NCBI GenBank assembly: GCA_963715335.1
Contig: CAVQRZ010000043.1
Span: forward strand, 1-64,000
DNA length: 64,000 nucleotides
Direction: 5' to 3'
Source of the DNA: an uncultured delta proteobacterium
Lineage (GTDB): Bacteria; Desulfobacterota; Desulfuromonadia; Desulfuromonadales; BM103
Under the pieces are notes generated by a model. The model was not told where the DNA came from and made no database searches. It was given only the letters and a program-made list of their open reading frames with translations. The position numbers were made by a program, and so were the translations under genes. Positions 6,026 to 34,900 of the stretch are shown here, in pieces. Position 1 is the stretch's first letter, and every line of letters starts with the position of its first letter.

Positions 6026-6060
6026 AAAAAAGCCCCACAGCCAGGAGGGGACTGTGGGGC
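6026..6060 (-). terminator. Intrinsic terminator with C-rich loop
   Basis: 10-bp GC-rich stem followed by T6 on the minus strand. Confidence 0.85.
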
Positions 6061-6105
6061 ACGGGTTTGGTTAGGAGGTAAAACATGAAGAGTATTACTC
6101 TGTTG
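6026..6105 (-). ncRNA. Putative ~80-nt small RNA with anti-SD segments
   Basis: Upstream TTGACA-N16-TAAGAT promoter; ends in GCCCCACAGT-cccctcctg-GCTGTGGGGC-TTTTTT; contains UUCAUGUUUUACCUCCU. Confidence 0.6.
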
Positions 6106-6111
6106 GAATTA

Positions 6112-6139
6112 ATCTTACCTTTTTAGTCAGGTATGTCAA
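6112..6139 (-). promoter_or_regulatory. Sigma70-type promoter
   Basis: TTGACA-16 nt-TAAGAT with AT-rich upstream element. Confidence 0.7.
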
Positions 6140-23613: not shown

Positions 23614-23650
23614 CTTGCGTCACATCTACTCAAGACGACCCTGGAGAGCT

Positions 23651-25921
23651 ATGGGCCCGATCATTACCGTCAAGGAAAACTGTCGTAAATGCTACGCCTG
23701 CATCCGCAACTGTCCGGTCAAGGCGATCCGGGTCCACCGCAATTATGCCGAAGTCATCAGCGACCGATGCATCGGTTGCGGCAACTGCGTCAAGAGCTGC
23801 TCGCAGAAAGCCAAGGTGATCGCCGACCATGTCGGCGAGTGCCGGAACCTTCTCGCTGGTGAGCAGCCGCCGATTGCAATACTCGGCTGTTCGCATCCGG
23901 CCTTTTTCAACGACATCCGTTCAGGCCAGCTGGTAACCGGCCTGCGTCGTCTAGGTTTTGCAGAAGTCCACGAAGGCGCCGCCGGCGTTGACCTGTTGCG
24001 CAAAAGCTACCTGAAGAGCGTTGAACGGAACAAGCCTTATCCTCTGATAACGACCCACTGCCCGACAATCGTCGACCTGATCGAACGACACTATCCGCAA
24101 CTGCTGAAGAACCTGATCGAGCTGGTTTCGCCGATGGTGGCGATTGGCCGTTTCATCAAAAGCCGCACCAGCAAGGACACGCCGGTCGTCTATATCAGCT
24201 CCTGCATCGCCGGCAAGTTCGAGATTACCGCAGAGCAGACCGAAGGGGCGATTGACTGTGTCATTTCCTACCAGGAGCTCAGCCAGATGTTCAAGTACCG
24301 CAACCTTGACCTCAAGCGCCTCGGCGAAACGGCTTTTGACGGCATGGAACCCAAGCGTGGCAGACTCTTCGCAATTTCCGGGGGACCATTCAAATCCTTC
24401 GGCATCGCCAGCGAAATTACCAACAAGGACTACGTCGAGACCGAGGGAGAAGAGAACGCTCTGGAAGTCATTAAGGATCTCGCTGCCGGCCGAATTTCAC
24501 CAAAGGTGGCGGATATTCGCTTCTGCAACGGCGGCTGCATCGGCGGTCCGGGCAAAAACAACCGCCTGACCACATTTTCCAAACGCAACCTGATCATTGA
24601 CCAGCACCTTAACCAGAACCTTTATTATCGCACCAAGTCTACATACATCGCAGACATACCCTTGCCGGACTTCACCAGGACCTTCGCCAACAAGCATGAG
24701 CGGCCCAAAACTCCCAGCAGCGAACGATTGCGCCAGATCCTGCAGGCGACCGACAAGTATGAAACCAAGGACGAGCTGAATTGCGGTGCCTGCGGATATA
24801 CCACTTGTCGTGAACACGCTGTCGCTGTCTACCGGGAATTGGCCGAGGGAGACATGTGCCTCCCTTACTCTTTGAAGCGCCTGGAAGAAGACCACATCAA
24901 GCTTACCCAGAAATATGAACTTGCCCAGCATGCCCTGAAACAGGAATTCGGTGAAACCGCTATAATCGGCCACGACCCCCGTACCCGGGAGGTCATCAAA
25001 CTGATTCATCAGGTTGGTCCGACACCGACCACGGTCCTGATCCGTGGCGAGAGCGGAACCGGCAAGGAACTCACGGCCCGGGCCATCCATGCCCAAAGTC
25101 AGAGAGCCGACAAGCCCCTGGTTTCAATAAACTGCACGACCCTGACTGACAGTATTCTGGAAAGTGAACTGTTCGGTCACAAGAAAGGTTCTTTCACTGG
25201 CGCGGTCAATGACAAACGCGGCCTCTTCGAAGCAGCTGACGGCGGAACGATTTTCCTCGATGAAGTTGGCGATATCACCTCCAAACTTCAGGTGGAACTC
25301 CTGCGCGTCCTCGACAGCGGTGAAATCCGCCCGGTCGGCGGAAATGCGTCGACCAAGGTTGACGTCCGCCTGATTGCAGCAACCAACCGCAACCTCGAGC
25401 AGGGCGTCGCTGAAGGTTGGTTTCGCGAGGATCTCTTTTACCGTCTGAACGTCTTTACCATTACCATGCCGCCACTGAGGAATCGACTCGAGTCACTCGA
25501 TGGGCTACTCCAGGCATTCATTGCCAAAGCGAGCACCCGGGTCAACAAGACCCTGTTTGGCATTGAAGACCGGGCGATTCAGGCCATGCGCCAATATCAC
25601 TGGCCTGGCAACATCCGTGAACTGCAGAACATCATCGAACGTGCTGCTGTCCTGACCCGCGATGAGATCATCCGGCTGGAAAACCTGCCGGTTATTTTTG
25701 GCGAACTGGTTCTGCAGGCCCCGGGCGACAAGAGCAACGGCACCCTGCGGACACAGCGCCAAAAGCATCTGAACCAGGTTGAAAAAAACCTCATGACCCG
25801 CTACCTGCGCGAAGCTGAAGGCAATATTTCGGCGGCAGCGCGACTGGCTGGAATTCCCCGTCGCACCTTTTACCGCATGCTTAATCGCAATGGTCTCAAT
25901 GGAACCGATTTCAAGGCCTGA
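23651..25921 (+). CDS. Sigma54-dependent activator with 2x[4Fe-4S], [FeFe]-hydrogenase-like and FeS sensory domains
   Basis: CRKCYACIRNCP, CIGCGNCVKSC; TTHCP, SSCIAGKFE, RFCNGGCIGG; CGACGYTTC; GESGTGKE, ESELFGH, GSFTGA, WPGNIREL; Fis-type HTH. Confidence 0.93.
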   Translation: MGPIITVKENCRKCYACIRNCPVKAIRVHRNYAEVISDRCIGCGNCVKSCSQKAKVIADHVGECRNLLAGEQPPIAILGCSHPAFFNDIRSGQLVTGLRRLGFAEVHEGAAGVDLLRKSYLKSVERNKPYPLITTHCPTIVDLIERHYPQLLKNLIELVSPMVAIGRFIKSRTSKDTPVVYISSCIAGKFEITAEQTEGAIDCVISYQELSQMFKYRNLDLKRLGETAFDGMEPKRGRLFAISGGPFKSFGIASEITNKDYVETEGEENALEVIKDLAAGRISPKVADIRFCNGGCIGGPGKNNRLTTFSKRNLIIDQHLNQNLYYRTKSTYIADIPLPDFTRTFANKHERPKTPSSERLRQILQATDKYETKDELNCGACGYTTCREHAVAVYRELAEGDMCLPYSLKRLEEDHIKLTQKYELAQHALKQEFGETAIIGHDPRTREVIKLIHQVGPTPTTVLIRGESGTGKELTARAIHAQSQRADKPLVSINCTTLTDSILESELFGHKKGSFTGAVNDKRGLFEAADGGTIFLDEVGDITSKLQVELLRVLDSGEIRPVGGNASTKVDVRLIAATNRNLEQGVAEGWFREDLFYRLNVFTITMPPLRNRLESLDGLLQAFIAKASTRVNKTLFGIEDRAIQAMRQYHWPGNIRELQNIIERAAVLTRDEIIRLENLPVIFGELVLQAPGDKSNGTLRTQRQKHLNQVEKNLMTRYLREAEGNISAAARLAGIPRRTFYRMLNRNGLNGTDFKA

Positions 25922-25971
25922 CACAAAAGTGAGACAGCTCTAAGACAAAAATTGTCATATATTAACCATGT

Positions 25972-26055
25972 TGTGCCATTTATGGCGCAGCTATATCGCC
26001 CATCAATACAGCGTTTTCCCCGCACGACTCAATATGATGCGCCATAAATGGCACA
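25972..26055. promoter_or_regulatory. Pair of enhancer (UAS) boxes forming a perfect 18-bp inverted repeat
   Basis: TGTGCCATTTATGGCGCA (25972-25989) and its exact reverse complement TGCGCCATAAATGGCACA (26038-26055). Confidence 0.8.
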
Positions 26056-26142
26056 CTTCAGGCCAAGTGGTCGCAACAGCCCCAACCACCTAAAACCGCG
26101 CCAAATCAGCTTTTCACGAGAAAGACAGCGAAACCGTAGCTC

Positions 26143-26158
26143 TGGCACGATAATTGCT
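26143..26158 (+). promoter_or_regulatory. Sigma54 -24/-12 promoter
   Basis: TGGCACGATAATTGCT, GG-N10-GC consensus. Confidence 0.88.
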
Positions 26159-26168
26159 CAGAAACTTG

Positions 26169-26263
26169 AGTAACTGTCTAGGGACAATAGTTTCCATTCT
26201 AAGGATTCCTGCTCCCTTTTTTGCGCCGCCACGGAACCTCTCTCCTCCGGGCGGCGTTTTTTT
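26169..26263 (+). ncRNA. Putative sigma54-dependent small RNA (~95 nt)
   Basis: Lies between the sigma54 promoter and a strong terminator; no AUG; 5' hairpin, pyrimidine-rich linker, terminator loop ACCTCTCTCC. Confidence 0.7.
26223..26263 (+). terminator. Intrinsic terminator
   Basis: GCGCCGCC-a-CGGA...TCCG-GGCGGCG followed by T7. Confidence 0.88.
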
Positions 26264-26374
26264 ATCTGCCATTTTAGCCATCAGCGCGCATGGATTGATT
26301 TTTAGTTCGCCAAAAAGACTGTCGTCCGCTATCATATTAAAAACTGTCAACCACCTCTTTTTCCAAACAACTTC

Positions 26375-28720
26375 ATGCCAAGTACGCAGAGTCCAAAAAT
26401 AGGCATAACAACCCTTGAAGACATCAGTGCGCTGATTCTCCAGTCACATGATCTCGACGAGACTCTACGCAATATCGTGACACTCGTTGCGCGGCGCATG
26501 CGCACGGACGTCTGCTCGATTTATTTGCTGGACACAGACAACGTGACCCTGCGTCTGCAGGCATCCAAAGGCCTGTCTCGCAAAGCAGTGGGCAAAGTCA
26601 CGCTACGCATCGGTGAAGGTCTCACCGGCATGGCGGCCCAAAAACGGCACGCCATCGCCATCGAAGAGCCGCAAGAACATCCAAGCTACCGATATTTCAA
26701 AGAAACCGGTGAAGAGCGCTTCCACTCGTTCCTGGGAATCCCACTTTTCGACCGTAACAATCCGCTTGGCGTGATCGTTCTGCAAACCAAGGAACCACGC
26801 CAATTCAACAAGGAAGAGATCAGCGCCCTGGCGACGATTGCCTTCCAGGTCTCGTCGATTGTTGTCAATGCACGCCTGCTCGACTCGATTCGGCAACATC
26901 AGGAAGAGAACCTGCGCGCCAGCGAAGCTCTGGTCAAGGCCCAGCAGTCGATGTCGGACTCTGATCGCTTGGCAGATGACTCGACAGGAAACATTCTCTC
27001 GGGCAGGATAGCCTACCCCGGGGTCGTCATAGGCCCGGCGGCCATCCTCGAAGAAAGGTTCGGTTTTGCCGACATCCTGGACGAAGAGGGAGTAGATATC
27101 CAGGCCGAGTTGCAAAGTCTCGAAAGCGCTCTGGAGAAGACCTGTATTCAAACTATTTTCCTCGAGAAACGCGTCGCGGAGCGTCTGAGCGAAAGCGATG
27201 CGGCAATCTTCCACACCCATCTGATGATTCTTGAGGATCGCAGTTTCATCGCAAAGCTGCAGGATAAAATCAAAGACGGGCACAGTGCTGCATACGCCCT
27301 GGAAAAAACCGTCGCCAATTACCTCGAAGCCTTTGCGAAGATGGACGACCCCTATCTTCGGGAACGTGCAGCCGACATGGAAGACATCGGCCGACGTATC
27401 TTGGCCAACCTGATCGGCGATGGCTCGGAGCATACCCTGCACCTGAAACATCCCAGTGTGCTGGTCGCCAGGAAGATCCTTCCTTCTGACATGGCCTCGC
27501 TCGATAATGATCAGATCCTCGGCATCATTACCGAAGACTGTGAAACCAACTCACATGCCGTGATCATGGCGAAAGCGATGGGCATCCCGGCAATCGTCGG
27601 TGCCCGCGGGGCGGTGAGACAAATTGCGCCGGAAGACGACCTGATCGTGGATGCCAACTCGGGGCGTATTTACATTAAACCGATGGAGGCGATCAGAGAA
27701 GAATTCCAGAGGCTCCTTGCGGATCAAACGCGCGAACTGTGCCGTCTTGAGCAGTACCGCGATCAGCCTGCTGAGACCTCTGATGGCGAAAGGGTCACTT
27801 TACGCGCCAACATCGGCCTGATCAGTGACATCGTTATTGCAAAACGTTTTGGCGCCGAAGGCGTAGGCCTCTATCGAACCGAATTCCCCTACATGGCCCG
27901 GGGCGATTTTCCAGACCGGAACGATCAGTACGAACTGTACAGCAAAGTCGTCAGGGAATTCGAGGGCCAGCCTGTGACAATTCGGACCCTCGATATTGGT
28001 GGCGACAAGGGGCTCCCCTACTTTAGTCCACCGAAGGAAGATAACCCGTTTATGGGCTGGCGTTCCGTGCGCGTCTCTCTGGACAACCGGGACATTTTCC
28101 GTACCCAAATAGAGTCAATTCTCATGGCCGGTTGCCACGGCCCGGTCAAGCTGCTCTTCCCCATGATCTCGAGCCTGGAAGAAACCCGAGCCTGTCTTGA
28201 AGTCGTTGAGGAAGCCCGGGCCAATCTCAAAAAGGACGGGTTGGACTGCCCAGGCAAAATCCCCGTCGGCGTCATGATTGAAGTGCCTGCCGCAGTAAGA
28301 CTGGTCCCGCAACTTGCCAACGAAGTTGACTTTTTCGCCCTGGGCACCAACGACCTGATCCAATACCTGCTCGCCGCCGACCGCAACAACCCTCTGGTCA
28401 GCAAATACTACGATCCACTGCATCCTGCCGTCCTCCATGTCATCCATGAAGTCACCAGCACCGCATTGTCGAGGGGCAAGGGCGTAAGTCTTTGTGGAGA
28501 AATGGCAACCGACCCCATGACCCTGTTGCTTTTGCTCGGCATGGGCCTGAGAGAATTCTCCATGCCAGCGCCCTTCATCCCGCGGATCAAGGCTTTTCTG
28601 AAAAGCGTCTCCCTGGAAATGGCTTGCCAACGCTACGCGGAAATCAGCACCATGGACAGCAGCACGCAGATTCGTCAGCATCTGGCCGAGGTGTTGAAGG
28701 ATGTTAATCTAGGGGACTAG
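26375..28720 (+). CDS. ptsP: PEP-protein phosphotransferase EI-Ntr (GAF + enzyme I)
   Basis: N-terminal GAF; NSHAVI phospho-His; GVGLYRTEF, RTLDIGGDK, GTNDLIQY, CGEMA. Confidence 0.96.
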   Translation: MPSTQSPKIGITTLEDISALILQSHDLDETLRNIVTLVARRMRTDVCSIYLLDTDNVTLRLQASKGLSRKAVGKVTLRIGEGLTGMAAQKRHAIAIEEPQEHPSYRYFKETGEERFHSFLGIPLFDRNNPLGVIVLQTKEPRQFNKEEISALATIAFQVSSIVVNARLLDSIRQHQEENLRASEALVKAQQSMSDSDRLADDSTGNILSGRIAYPGVVIGPAAILEERFGFADILDEEGVDIQAELQSLESALEKTCIQTIFLEKRVAERLSESDAAIFHTHLMILEDRSFIAKLQDKIKDGHSAAYALEKTVANYLEAFAKMDDPYLRERAADMEDIGRRILANLIGDGSEHTLHLKHPSVLVARKILPSDMASLDNDQILGIITEDCETNSHAVIMAKAMGIPAIVGARGAVRQIAPEDDLIVDANSGRIYIKPMEAIREEFQRLLADQTRELCRLEQYRDQPAETSDGERVTLRANIGLISDIVIAKRFGAEGVGLYRTEFPYMARGDFPDRNDQYELYSKVVREFEGQPVTIRTLDIGGDKGLPYFSPPKEDNPFMGWRSVRVSLDNRDIFRTQIESILMAGCHGPVKLLFPMISSLEETRACLEVVEEARANLKKDGLDCPGKIPVGVMIEVPAAVRLVPQLANEVDFFALGTNDLIQYLLAADRNNPLVSKYYDPLHPAVLHVIHEVTSTALSRGKGVSLCGEMATDPMTLLLLLGMGLREFSMPAPFIPRIKAFLKSVSLEMACQRYAEISTMDSSTQIRQHLAEVLKDVNLGD

Positions 28721-34820: not shown

Positions 34821-34900
34821 AAAAAAGCCCCACTCCACGGAGGGGGATGGGAGCAGGGCAAATTCCTCTGTCCTATGAGAGGGTCATAAGCCAGAGTGAT
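34821..34900 (-). ncRNA. Putative ~80-nt two-hairpin small RNA with C-rich loops
   Basis: TAGACA promoter at 34930-34935; hairpin 1 loop CCCTC; terminator loop TCCCCCTCC then GTGGGGC-T6. Confidence 0.6.

Follow-up and report, generated by a model that had tools for sequence, protein, structure and literature searches.

In Geobacter, hgtR (GSU3364) is a monocistronic gene for a repressor of 62 amino acids, which is transcribed from an RpoN promoter and preceded by the gene for an activator with an Fe-only hydrogenase domain (Ueki and Lovley; PMC2817479, in its available part), in agreement with the arrangement that a first-pass annotation of the DNA analysed here had described for Geobacter. 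HgtR sites are reported in the same part of that paper for gltA, acnB, icd(-mdh), oorD, ato, frdC, atpG, nuoA, sfrB, fumA and others. The DNA in question, a stretch of 64,000 nt from an uncultured delta proteobacterium (GCA_963715335.1, contig CAVQRZ010000043.1, positions 1 to 64,000; hereafter the window), carries upstream of ptsP an orthologous activator (47-57% identity over the sensor) together with the same palindromic box, a sigma54 promoter, a monocistronic terminated output and an overlapping set of candidate targets (gltA, acnB, icd-mdh, ato, fum). In contrast to the hgtR module, however, the locus delivers a non-coding RNA, for which ribosome-binding sites (RBSs) are the predicted place of action, whereas HgtR is a DNA-binding repressor which also covers frdC, atpG, nuoA and sfrB (PMC2817479, available part). 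We consider it probable that an activator sensing Fe-S or redox status drives at this locus a small RNA (sRNA) that represses the translation of tricarboxylic acid (TCA) cycle enzymes. With slightly less confidence, we propose that the regulon has switched its effector class under a fixed sensor, the same genes being addressed by an sRNA with GGAGAGAG RBS targets in one order and by the HgtR protein in the sister order.

Elements of this arrangement are familiar from other regulatory RNAs. RyhB, with which PrrF is grouped, is a Fur-repressed and sigma70-driven RNA that represses mRNAs of TCA enzymes by pairing, and CrcZ (CbrB-CrcZ) and GlmY (GlrR-GlmY) are sigma54-dependent sRNAs that adjoin the genes of their activators and act as protein decoys. 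The RNA of the window resembles RyhB in its predicted targets and CrcZ and GlmY in its sigma54 wiring, and has no Rfam match to RyhB/PrrF, CrcZ or GlmY, nor to Pxr. Pxr belongs to the PxrK/PxrR-Pxr system of Myxococcus xanthus, which is likewise deltaproteobacterial and has a sigma54 activator gene upstream of the sRNA promoter, PxrR being required for Pxr synthesis; however, PxrR is a phosphorylated response regulator, and Pxr, an RNA with three stem-loops, undergoes processing and acts in the control of development (PMC10217877, sections available). In the LuxO-Qrr system, too, an enhancer-binding protein (EBP) with upstream sites drives a sigma54-dependent sRNA that represses post-transcriptionally, as is predicted here, but LuxO is a REC-domain phosphorelay protein and qrr1 is oriented opposite to luxO, whereas the present locus pairs a one-component Fe-S sensor with the RNA in tandem (PMC10162802, sections available). 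The atoC RNA motif (RF01733) is also deltaproteobacterial and consists of a hairpin, a linker and a terminator with a pyrimidine-rich loop, yet its loop reads CCCUCCU rather than having the core UCUCUCC, its first hairpin is short, its 5' end is sigma70-like and its annotation is cis-regulatory (Weinberg et al. 2010; PMC2864571, accessible portion). A search of the source genome with RF01733 (E <= 10) gave four sub-threshold matches, none of them at this locus.

The first-pass annotation had placed two identical 18-bp boxes in inverted orientation directly after the activator gene, about 90-170 bp upstream of a TGGCAC-N5-TTGCT promoter. The two boxes are reverse-complementary at 18/18 positions, each is itself a TG(T/C)GCCA-N4-TGGC(A/G)CA palindrome, and the promoter lies 88-171 bp from them. 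Identity at 18/18 is peculiar to the source genome, the relatives retaining the palindromic half-sites with variation of the central 4 nt. Of the 81 RNA loci that were scored, 75 have a box of at least 12/14, and 69 have a pair of at least 11/14 each, commonly near -105 and -171; the same box type occurs in 11 of 12 scored HgtR loci. The box pattern has no further match in the 3.3-Mb source genome, so that the RNA looks like the sole strong output of the activator. The adjacent EBP with AAA+ and helix-turn-helix (HTH) domains, the upstream palindromic sites and the -24/-12 promoter are all in place, which sustains the LuxO-Qrr-like architecture that had been proposed, and the RNA is very probably driven by the neighbouring activator. 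Its start at 26169 is a prediction from the standard sigma54 spacing, which we take to hold here.

Between this start and 26263, the RNA contains neither AUG nor GUG and a single UUG, located in the U linker. The 95 nt fold into two hairpins with z = -3.72, a fold matched by none of 200 shuffles, which bears out the suggestion of some 95 nt without AUG ending in a strong terminator, even if a simple terminator scan (loops of up to 8 nt) missed this second stem-loop (SL2). The terminator loop ACCUCUCUCC, suspected from the outset to be complementary to the Shine-Dalgarno (SD) sequence, contains the core UCUCUCC at every one of 82 loci (78 identified by pattern and 4 read by eye, part of the set having been found using queries that include the motif), and this core is unpaired in the fold ensemble. 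On the other hand, UUCCUGCUCCC, which had been put forward as a second free seed, is paired in the predicted fold as part of the conserved 5' hairpin, the interrupted stem-loop SL1. Features of Hfq-type sRNAs are present, namely an intrinsic terminator with U tail, a U-rich linker, a conserved unpaired seed and an hfq gene in the genome. Features of a CsrB/RsmZ-type decoy are missing, as csrA was not found in the source genome and both GGA-containing stretches of the RNA lie in stems.

Conservation extends far beyond chance. Among 61 related genomes, 40 have a DNA match to the intergenic region, the conserved core being the promoter plus the RNA, which is 85-90% identical in the closest family members. 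Promoter and RNA were found by one pattern in 48 of 50 loci; L048 holds a longer copy, which a looser pattern recovers, and in L050 the RNA was not found. Homologues vary between 87 and 128 nt with indels that are not multiples of three. The plain MAFFT alignment, which comprises 48 sequences, has 89% of its cells paired and 10 of 23 pairs changed on both sides; none of 500 shuffles reaches this, and slid controls pair at 44-53%. The model-fitted alignment of 61 matches, which favours the given structure and takes in one non-homologous match (L126), yields 91% pairing cells and 15 of 22 pairs changed on both sides. For helices 1-3 of SL1, changes on both sides affect 9 of 11 pairs in the model-fitted and 5 of 11 in the plain alignment. 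RNAalifold on the MAFFT alignment recovered the terminator alone, since SL1 is misregistered between families in that alignment; SL1 was recovered by single-sequence folds and by the model-fitted alignment. We regard it as almost certain that the element is a conserved non-coding RNA. It is also uncatalogued: the Rfam 15 search that had been proposed as a check on novelty returned no family at gathering threshold (the best on the RNA being suhB/mmgR with 18.8 bits against 41), the RNAs of the homologous loci L038 and L048 had no Rfam match at E <= 1, and no description of the RNA was found in the literature searched, including the available parts of PMC3543383 and PMC11934962, although subscription papers, bioRxiv supplements and other sRNA lists may hold one.

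The distribution of the RNA was followed in a class-wide sample of 151 genomes, 76 of the same order as the source genome and 75 of another order; we infer that the former order is the Desulfuromonadales and that the families f26-f29 of the latter are the Geobacter group. The covariance model finds the RNA in 55/76 genomes of its own order and 1/75 of the other, the lone match having been rejected as spurious, a bare terminator. There is one copy per genome of the own order, save a second match of 36 bits in G148; extra matches in the source genome (27.7 and 17 bits) and in G062 (32 bits) were rejected as bare terminators or coding sequence. Leaving family f5 aside, the RNA accompanies the activator in each of the 50 own-order relatives that possess the latter; in 4 others the RNA occurs by itself, and 13 lack both. 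Among loci fetched by the position of the activator, the RNA follows in 19 of 19 with G052-type orthologues (L031-L049, 62-71% identity), and is absent from the twentieth, L050, with an activator only 42% identical. Family f5 has the RNA in none of 8 genomes, a diverged activator running directly into ptsP in the three loci read. In these loci (L050, L122, L123), the activator has 41-44% identity and neither promoter nor RNA lies between it and ptsP; their genomes contain extra hydrogenase-like paralogues and, in G040, HydF. Five own-order genomes lacking both activator and RNA were rechecked without finding the RNA, the region upstream of ptsP having been read in three.

In the other order, all 14 loci read show the activator, a box, a sigma54-type promoter, an open reading frame (ORF) of 59-63 codons and a terminator. 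We class these ORFs as HgtR-like because of where they lie, how long they are (59-63 aa) and which promoter precedes them, the comparison with hgtR itself relying on its description in the available part of PMC2817479. A profile built from them has matches at E <= 1e-26 in 67/75 other-order genomes and 0/76 own-order genomes, weak matches (E 1e-4 to 4e-15) occurring in 42/75 own-order relatives. The source genome has no match to the profile, and no such ORF follows its sigma54 promoter. Conversely, a looser model search of five HgtR-order genomes found no promoter-linked homologue of the RNA (best 25.9 bits). A protein-based locus search returned 23 close relatives, metagenome-derived or unclassified, and one weak match, with no named Geobacter among them. 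Judged from these loci, the RNA occupies the slot held by hgtR in the other order, and the early suggestion of an RNA output in place of a repressor protein has gained considerable ground. Upstream of many HgtR-like genes (L108-L121), a GTATAC hexamer stands beside the activator box and is possibly an autoregulatory operator.

Candidate targets, an addition of the comparative data to the first-pass annotation, were sought with a seed defined from the RNA before any target was examined. In the source genome, the loop core UCUCUCC is complementary to GGAGAGAG at the RBSs of gltA, acnB, icd, ato, fum and mdh. A rough gene caller gave 3340 genes, of which 19 have GGAGAGAG at the start, five being acnB, icd, mdh, fum and ato; gltA, missed by the caller and located afterwards, carries AAGGAGAGAGAG. 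For acnB, icd, fum and ato, the assignment is consistent with family matches at the same coordinates or genomes, and mdh was recognised from its sequence. In the ribosomal-protein cluster the 8-mer occurs at no gene and the 7-mer at rplJ alone. An 11-nt match to the RNA occurs in nuoL. Other starts with GGAGAGAG include C6:134920, C21:26032, C14:133278 and C9:117363, whose translations we take to be, respectively, a narK-like transporter and gcvT-like, ornithine-cyclodeaminase-like and msrA-like proteins.

RNA-bearing and HgtR-order genomes were then compared for GGAGAGA within 22 nt of the start codon. For each gene, the 30 best-scoring loci and 0-40 further ones, picked so as to represent more families and ahead of any look at the sites, were read out of 135-150 genomes with a match (icd 71, acnB 50, ato 30, gltA 61, fum 50); one contig-edge icd locus, 11 loci without mdh beside icd and nine bacterial-type citrate synthases were dropped. 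The motif is present in 28/30 RNA-bearing versus 0/20 HgtR-order genomes for gltA, 25/27 versus 3/24 for mdh, 19/27 versus 0/20 for fum, 12/21 versus 0/17 for acnB and 6/11 versus 0/13 for ato, where in the case of multiple ato copies the best copy alone was read, which may not be the orthologue. For icd, the 8-mer is present in 9/30 versus 0/29. The RNA-less family f5 has GGAGAGA in 0/4 (gltA), 0/6 (ato) and 1/5 (acnB) loci, and neither a monomeric icd nor a class I fumarase was found in its genomes (0/8 each). As GGAGAGAG-N0-9-ATG is equally frequent genome-wide, with a median of 5.85 per Mb in RNA-bearing and 6.05 per Mb in HgtR-order genomes, the contrast at the TCA genes is gene-specific. 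In the source genome, icd is split at ~83947 into two overlapping frames (contig C22, 83262-85485), due to either an assembly error or a real frameshift; the assembly has 6.87% contamination and several duplicated genes.

A number of observations weigh against repression of the TCA genes by an activator-driven RNA. Four loci (L088, L124, L125, L151) keep the RNA and the sigma54 promoter with no activator detected; the boxes are decayed in L088 and L124 (8-9/14), and since one box is left in L125 and L151, another activator may serve the RNA there. In the three of these loci read far enough, a dipeptide ATP-binding cassette (ABC) ATPase gene lies immediately upstream. The GGAGAGA site of icd is class-wide (27/30 RNA-bearing, 22/29 HgtR-order), and may be a relic of whichever effector state came first. 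In own-order genomes that have lost the module, most sites are still there (gltA 6/7, acnB 6/7, icd 10/11, mdh 8/9, fum 1/3), which may represent slow decay of a still-functional RBS after recent loss, a different factor fitting equally well. On the other side, RNA-bearing genomes can lack the site (acnB 9/21, fum 8/27), several RNA-bearing families have none at acnB, ato or fum, and in the source genome there is none at frdC, korA, korB, atpA and atpD, which belong to HgtR-regulated operons in Geobacter. The contrast between the orders amounts to about one evolutionary event plus family f5, so that the counts are not independent; for the same reason, no weight is given to the Fisher p-values calculated from them. 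An anti-SD seed of 8 nt is short, and in an energy ranking with accessibility the candidates stand among unrelated genes, at ranks 3 (mdh), 6 (fum), 9 (acnB), 24 (ato) and 34 (gltA) of 3334, icd falling outside the top 40; raw duplex energy over -30..+15 is noisy, with icd and fum at about rank 220. The one RNA run examined (X1, word share 0.09), in which the organism is barely represented and which consists of contigs only, has no contig over 25792-26527 and one near-identical piece of 248 nt, located in ptsP, so that it bears on the RNA in neither direction.

These observations are in part what would be expected if the RNA, though real and activator-driven, had other targets or titrated an RNA-binding protein, with the GGAGAGAG sites of the TCA genes kept by another factor or inherited within the order. 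The persistence of the sites after loss of the RNA and the class-wide icd site fit such a role, as do 13 further terminators with pyrimidine-rich CUCC loops in the source genome, which indicate that anti-SD loops are common, and the conservation of SL1, which the seed model leaves unexplained. We nevertheless consider it unlikely, although worth keeping in sight, as the motif for which six TCA genes are enriched is an exact match to the invariant loop, these genes correspond to the HgtR regulon, and the motif has no general enrichment in the order; titration in particular is at odds with the failure to find csrA and with an RNA devoid of repeated GGA loops. An attenuated 5' leader of ptsP, considered in the first-pass annotation, is favoured by the presence of ptsP downstream of the RNA in most loci and by the activator-ptsP synteny, which survives in f5 without the RNA. 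However, the RNA stays beside the activator where ptsP has been replaced (L031-L034, L048, L140-L144, L146-L148), presumably by dedA-like or yebC-like genes to judge from the translations. Besides, ptsP has a sigma70-type promoter of its own downstream of the terminator, whose pattern is present in 39/81 loci and retained where the RNA is lost, and the minimum-energy folds of 48 homologues contain no antiterminator, so that a leader is highly improbable. Even less credit can be given to a small peptide, for which the mechanical ORF list offers 82 codons at 26154-26402 (+) and 78 codons at 26114-26350 (-): the plus-strand ORF has no Pfam match, the RNA varies in length through the non-triplet indels described above, the longest open stretch per frame differs among six close relatives, and substitutions keep base pairs.

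Sigma54-dependent repression of the TCA genes by the RNA would hold equally if the activator carried a true H-cluster and sensed H2 directly, as proposed for the Geobacter orthologue. Its Pfam domains are 2x[4Fe-4S] ferredoxin, the Fe-hydrogenase-like Fe_hyd_lg_C, FeS, AAA+ and a Fis-type HTH; class-wide, orthologues are 47-89% identical over the sensor region. The Fe_hyd_lg_C domain keeps all four H-cluster cysteines, and hgtR transcripts go up on H2 in G. sulfurreducens, from which the authors suggest H2 sensing (PMC2817479, available part). However, relative to solved [FeFe]-hydrogenases, the pocket reads TTHCP for TSCCP, SSCIAGKFE for MPCxxKKxE with loss of the first Lys, and RFCxGGC for xMACxxGC, changes that are common to both orders; the same or near forms are found in 18 of 21 aligned proteins, the three f5 proteins being more diverged. 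The changed residues are ones with a presumed role in binding the di-iron site. HydF reaches the cut-off in 2/61 genomes, neither with the RNA, and HydG is below the cut-off in the source genome, so that neither the canonical pocket motifs nor the maturases HydF and HydG speak for the cofactor. Owing to the changed pocket, the rarity of HydF and the sub-threshold HydG, a di-iron H-cluster appears unlikely in the sensor, and the H2 induction of hgtR in Geobacter can therefore be indirect. Direct sensing of H2 by the activator is thus improbable, and the same circuit with a true H-cluster sensor more so; the input is more probably the redox or Fe-S status. Of the H2/redox response anticipated from the sequence, the redox part is thereby favoured, and the H2 part, as far as it implies a hydrogenase-type cofactor, is doubtful.

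With Fe-S-controlled repression by the RNA as the preferred reading, the circuit would run as follows. Conservation and co-loss suggest that the two palindromes are the binding sites from which the upstream Fe-S EBP switches on the sigma54 promoter; an intrinsically terminated RNA of ~95 nt, expected from conservation and structure, would be made and would probably be assisted by Hfq. Its loop UCUCUCC could then pair over 8-11 nt with the complementary (G)GAGGAGAGAG / AAGGAGAGAG RBSs of gltA, acnB, icd, ato, fum and mdh, and pairing would block translation and presumably lower acetate oxidation via the TCA cycle. Under the control of the same activator and box, the RNA would in this way do the job of the transcriptional repressor HgtR of Geobacter. 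What the activator senses is most likely whether plain [4Fe-4S] clusters are occupied or in which redox state they are, and growth on H2 would alter this indirectly.

Table 1. Positions in the window of the predicted sRNA, its regulatory elements and its neighbours.
Feature	Position	Strand	Remarks
Gene of the Fe-S sigma54 enhancer-binding protein	23651..25921	+	756 aa from ATG 23651; in-frame TTG upstream at 23615
Distal putative activator box, TGTGCCA-N4-TGGCGCA palindrome	25972..25989	.	about -171 from the GG of -24
Proximal putative activator box	26038..26055	.	about -105 from the GG of -24
Weak IHF (integration host factor)-like site	26104..26116	+	1 mismatch to the consensus; tentative
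Sigma54 -24/-12 promoter, TGGCAC-GATAA-TTGCT (TGGCAC-N5-TTGCT)	26143..26158	+	
Predicted 95-nt small RNA	26169..26263	+	5' leader, SL1, U-rich linker, SL2 terminator, U tail
SL1, interrupted hairpin	26180..26217	+	5' AGGGA pairs with 3' UCCCU; includes UUCCUGCUCCC
UUCCUGCUCCC	26206-26216	+	3' arm of SL1
Terminator stem (SL2)	26223-26257	+	from the fold
Terminator loop ACCUCUCUCC	26236..26245	+	core UCUCUCC invariant; GGAGAGA(G) RBSs are its proposed pairing partners
Sigma70-type promoter of ptsP, TCGCCA-17-TATCAT	26307..26335	+	downstream of the terminator
ptsP (GAF + enzyme I)	26375..28720	+	usual neighbour, outside the RNA unit

The IHF-like site of Table 1 has a counterpart with at most one mismatch in just 23/81 loci. 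Further family-conserved sequences surround the boxes: a palindrome GACAA-AAA-TTGTC at 25944-25956, just 3' of the activator stop codon, and, between the boxes (25989-26020), the motifs CAGC-AT-TCGCC and GCGTTTTCCC. Possibly, the activator has a third site here, or a second regulator is involved.

Look-alike RNAs occur elsewhere in the window, in the source genome and in relatives. At 6026-6139 of the window (minus strand), a second sRNA-like unit has a TTGACA-16-TAAGAT promoter, ~80 nt with CAUGUUUUACCUCCUAA, which is complementary to a generic SD followed by AUG, and a terminator whose loop is CCCCUCCU; contig C5 has a near copy of the unit at about 71900 (L130). A family of terminators with pyrimidine-rich CUCC loops is represented at 34821-34860 of the window (minus strand) and at 11 further places in the source genome, several with similar GCCCCACAG stems, some behind sigma70-type promoters and one upstream of a glnA-like gene (L128); three or four match RF01733 weakly (17-25 bits against 50). 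Possibly, they constitute a multicopy class of anti-SD sRNAs. In G148 (L126:1013-1241, minus strand), tandem look-alikes, each with a sigma70-type promoter, lie between engB-like and prfC-like genes and combine a GGGA...UCCC hairpin, a U linker and a CCCUCCU-loop terminator, with RF01733 scores of 28-29 bits.

With respect to the biology of these bacteria, the RNA now has a named seed and a named list of candidate targets. The proposal of 2009 that the hydrogenase-like activator senses H2 becomes testable, although direct sensing looks unlikely because the pocket is changed and a maturase is missing. With sensor, enhancer and candidate targets constant between the two orders, the locus provides a natural comparison of a protein with an RNA effector. 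In bacteria of the Desulfuromonadales type that reduce metals, sulfur or electrodes, and in which HgtR was not found, the RNA is a candidate for the master switch of acetate oxidation.
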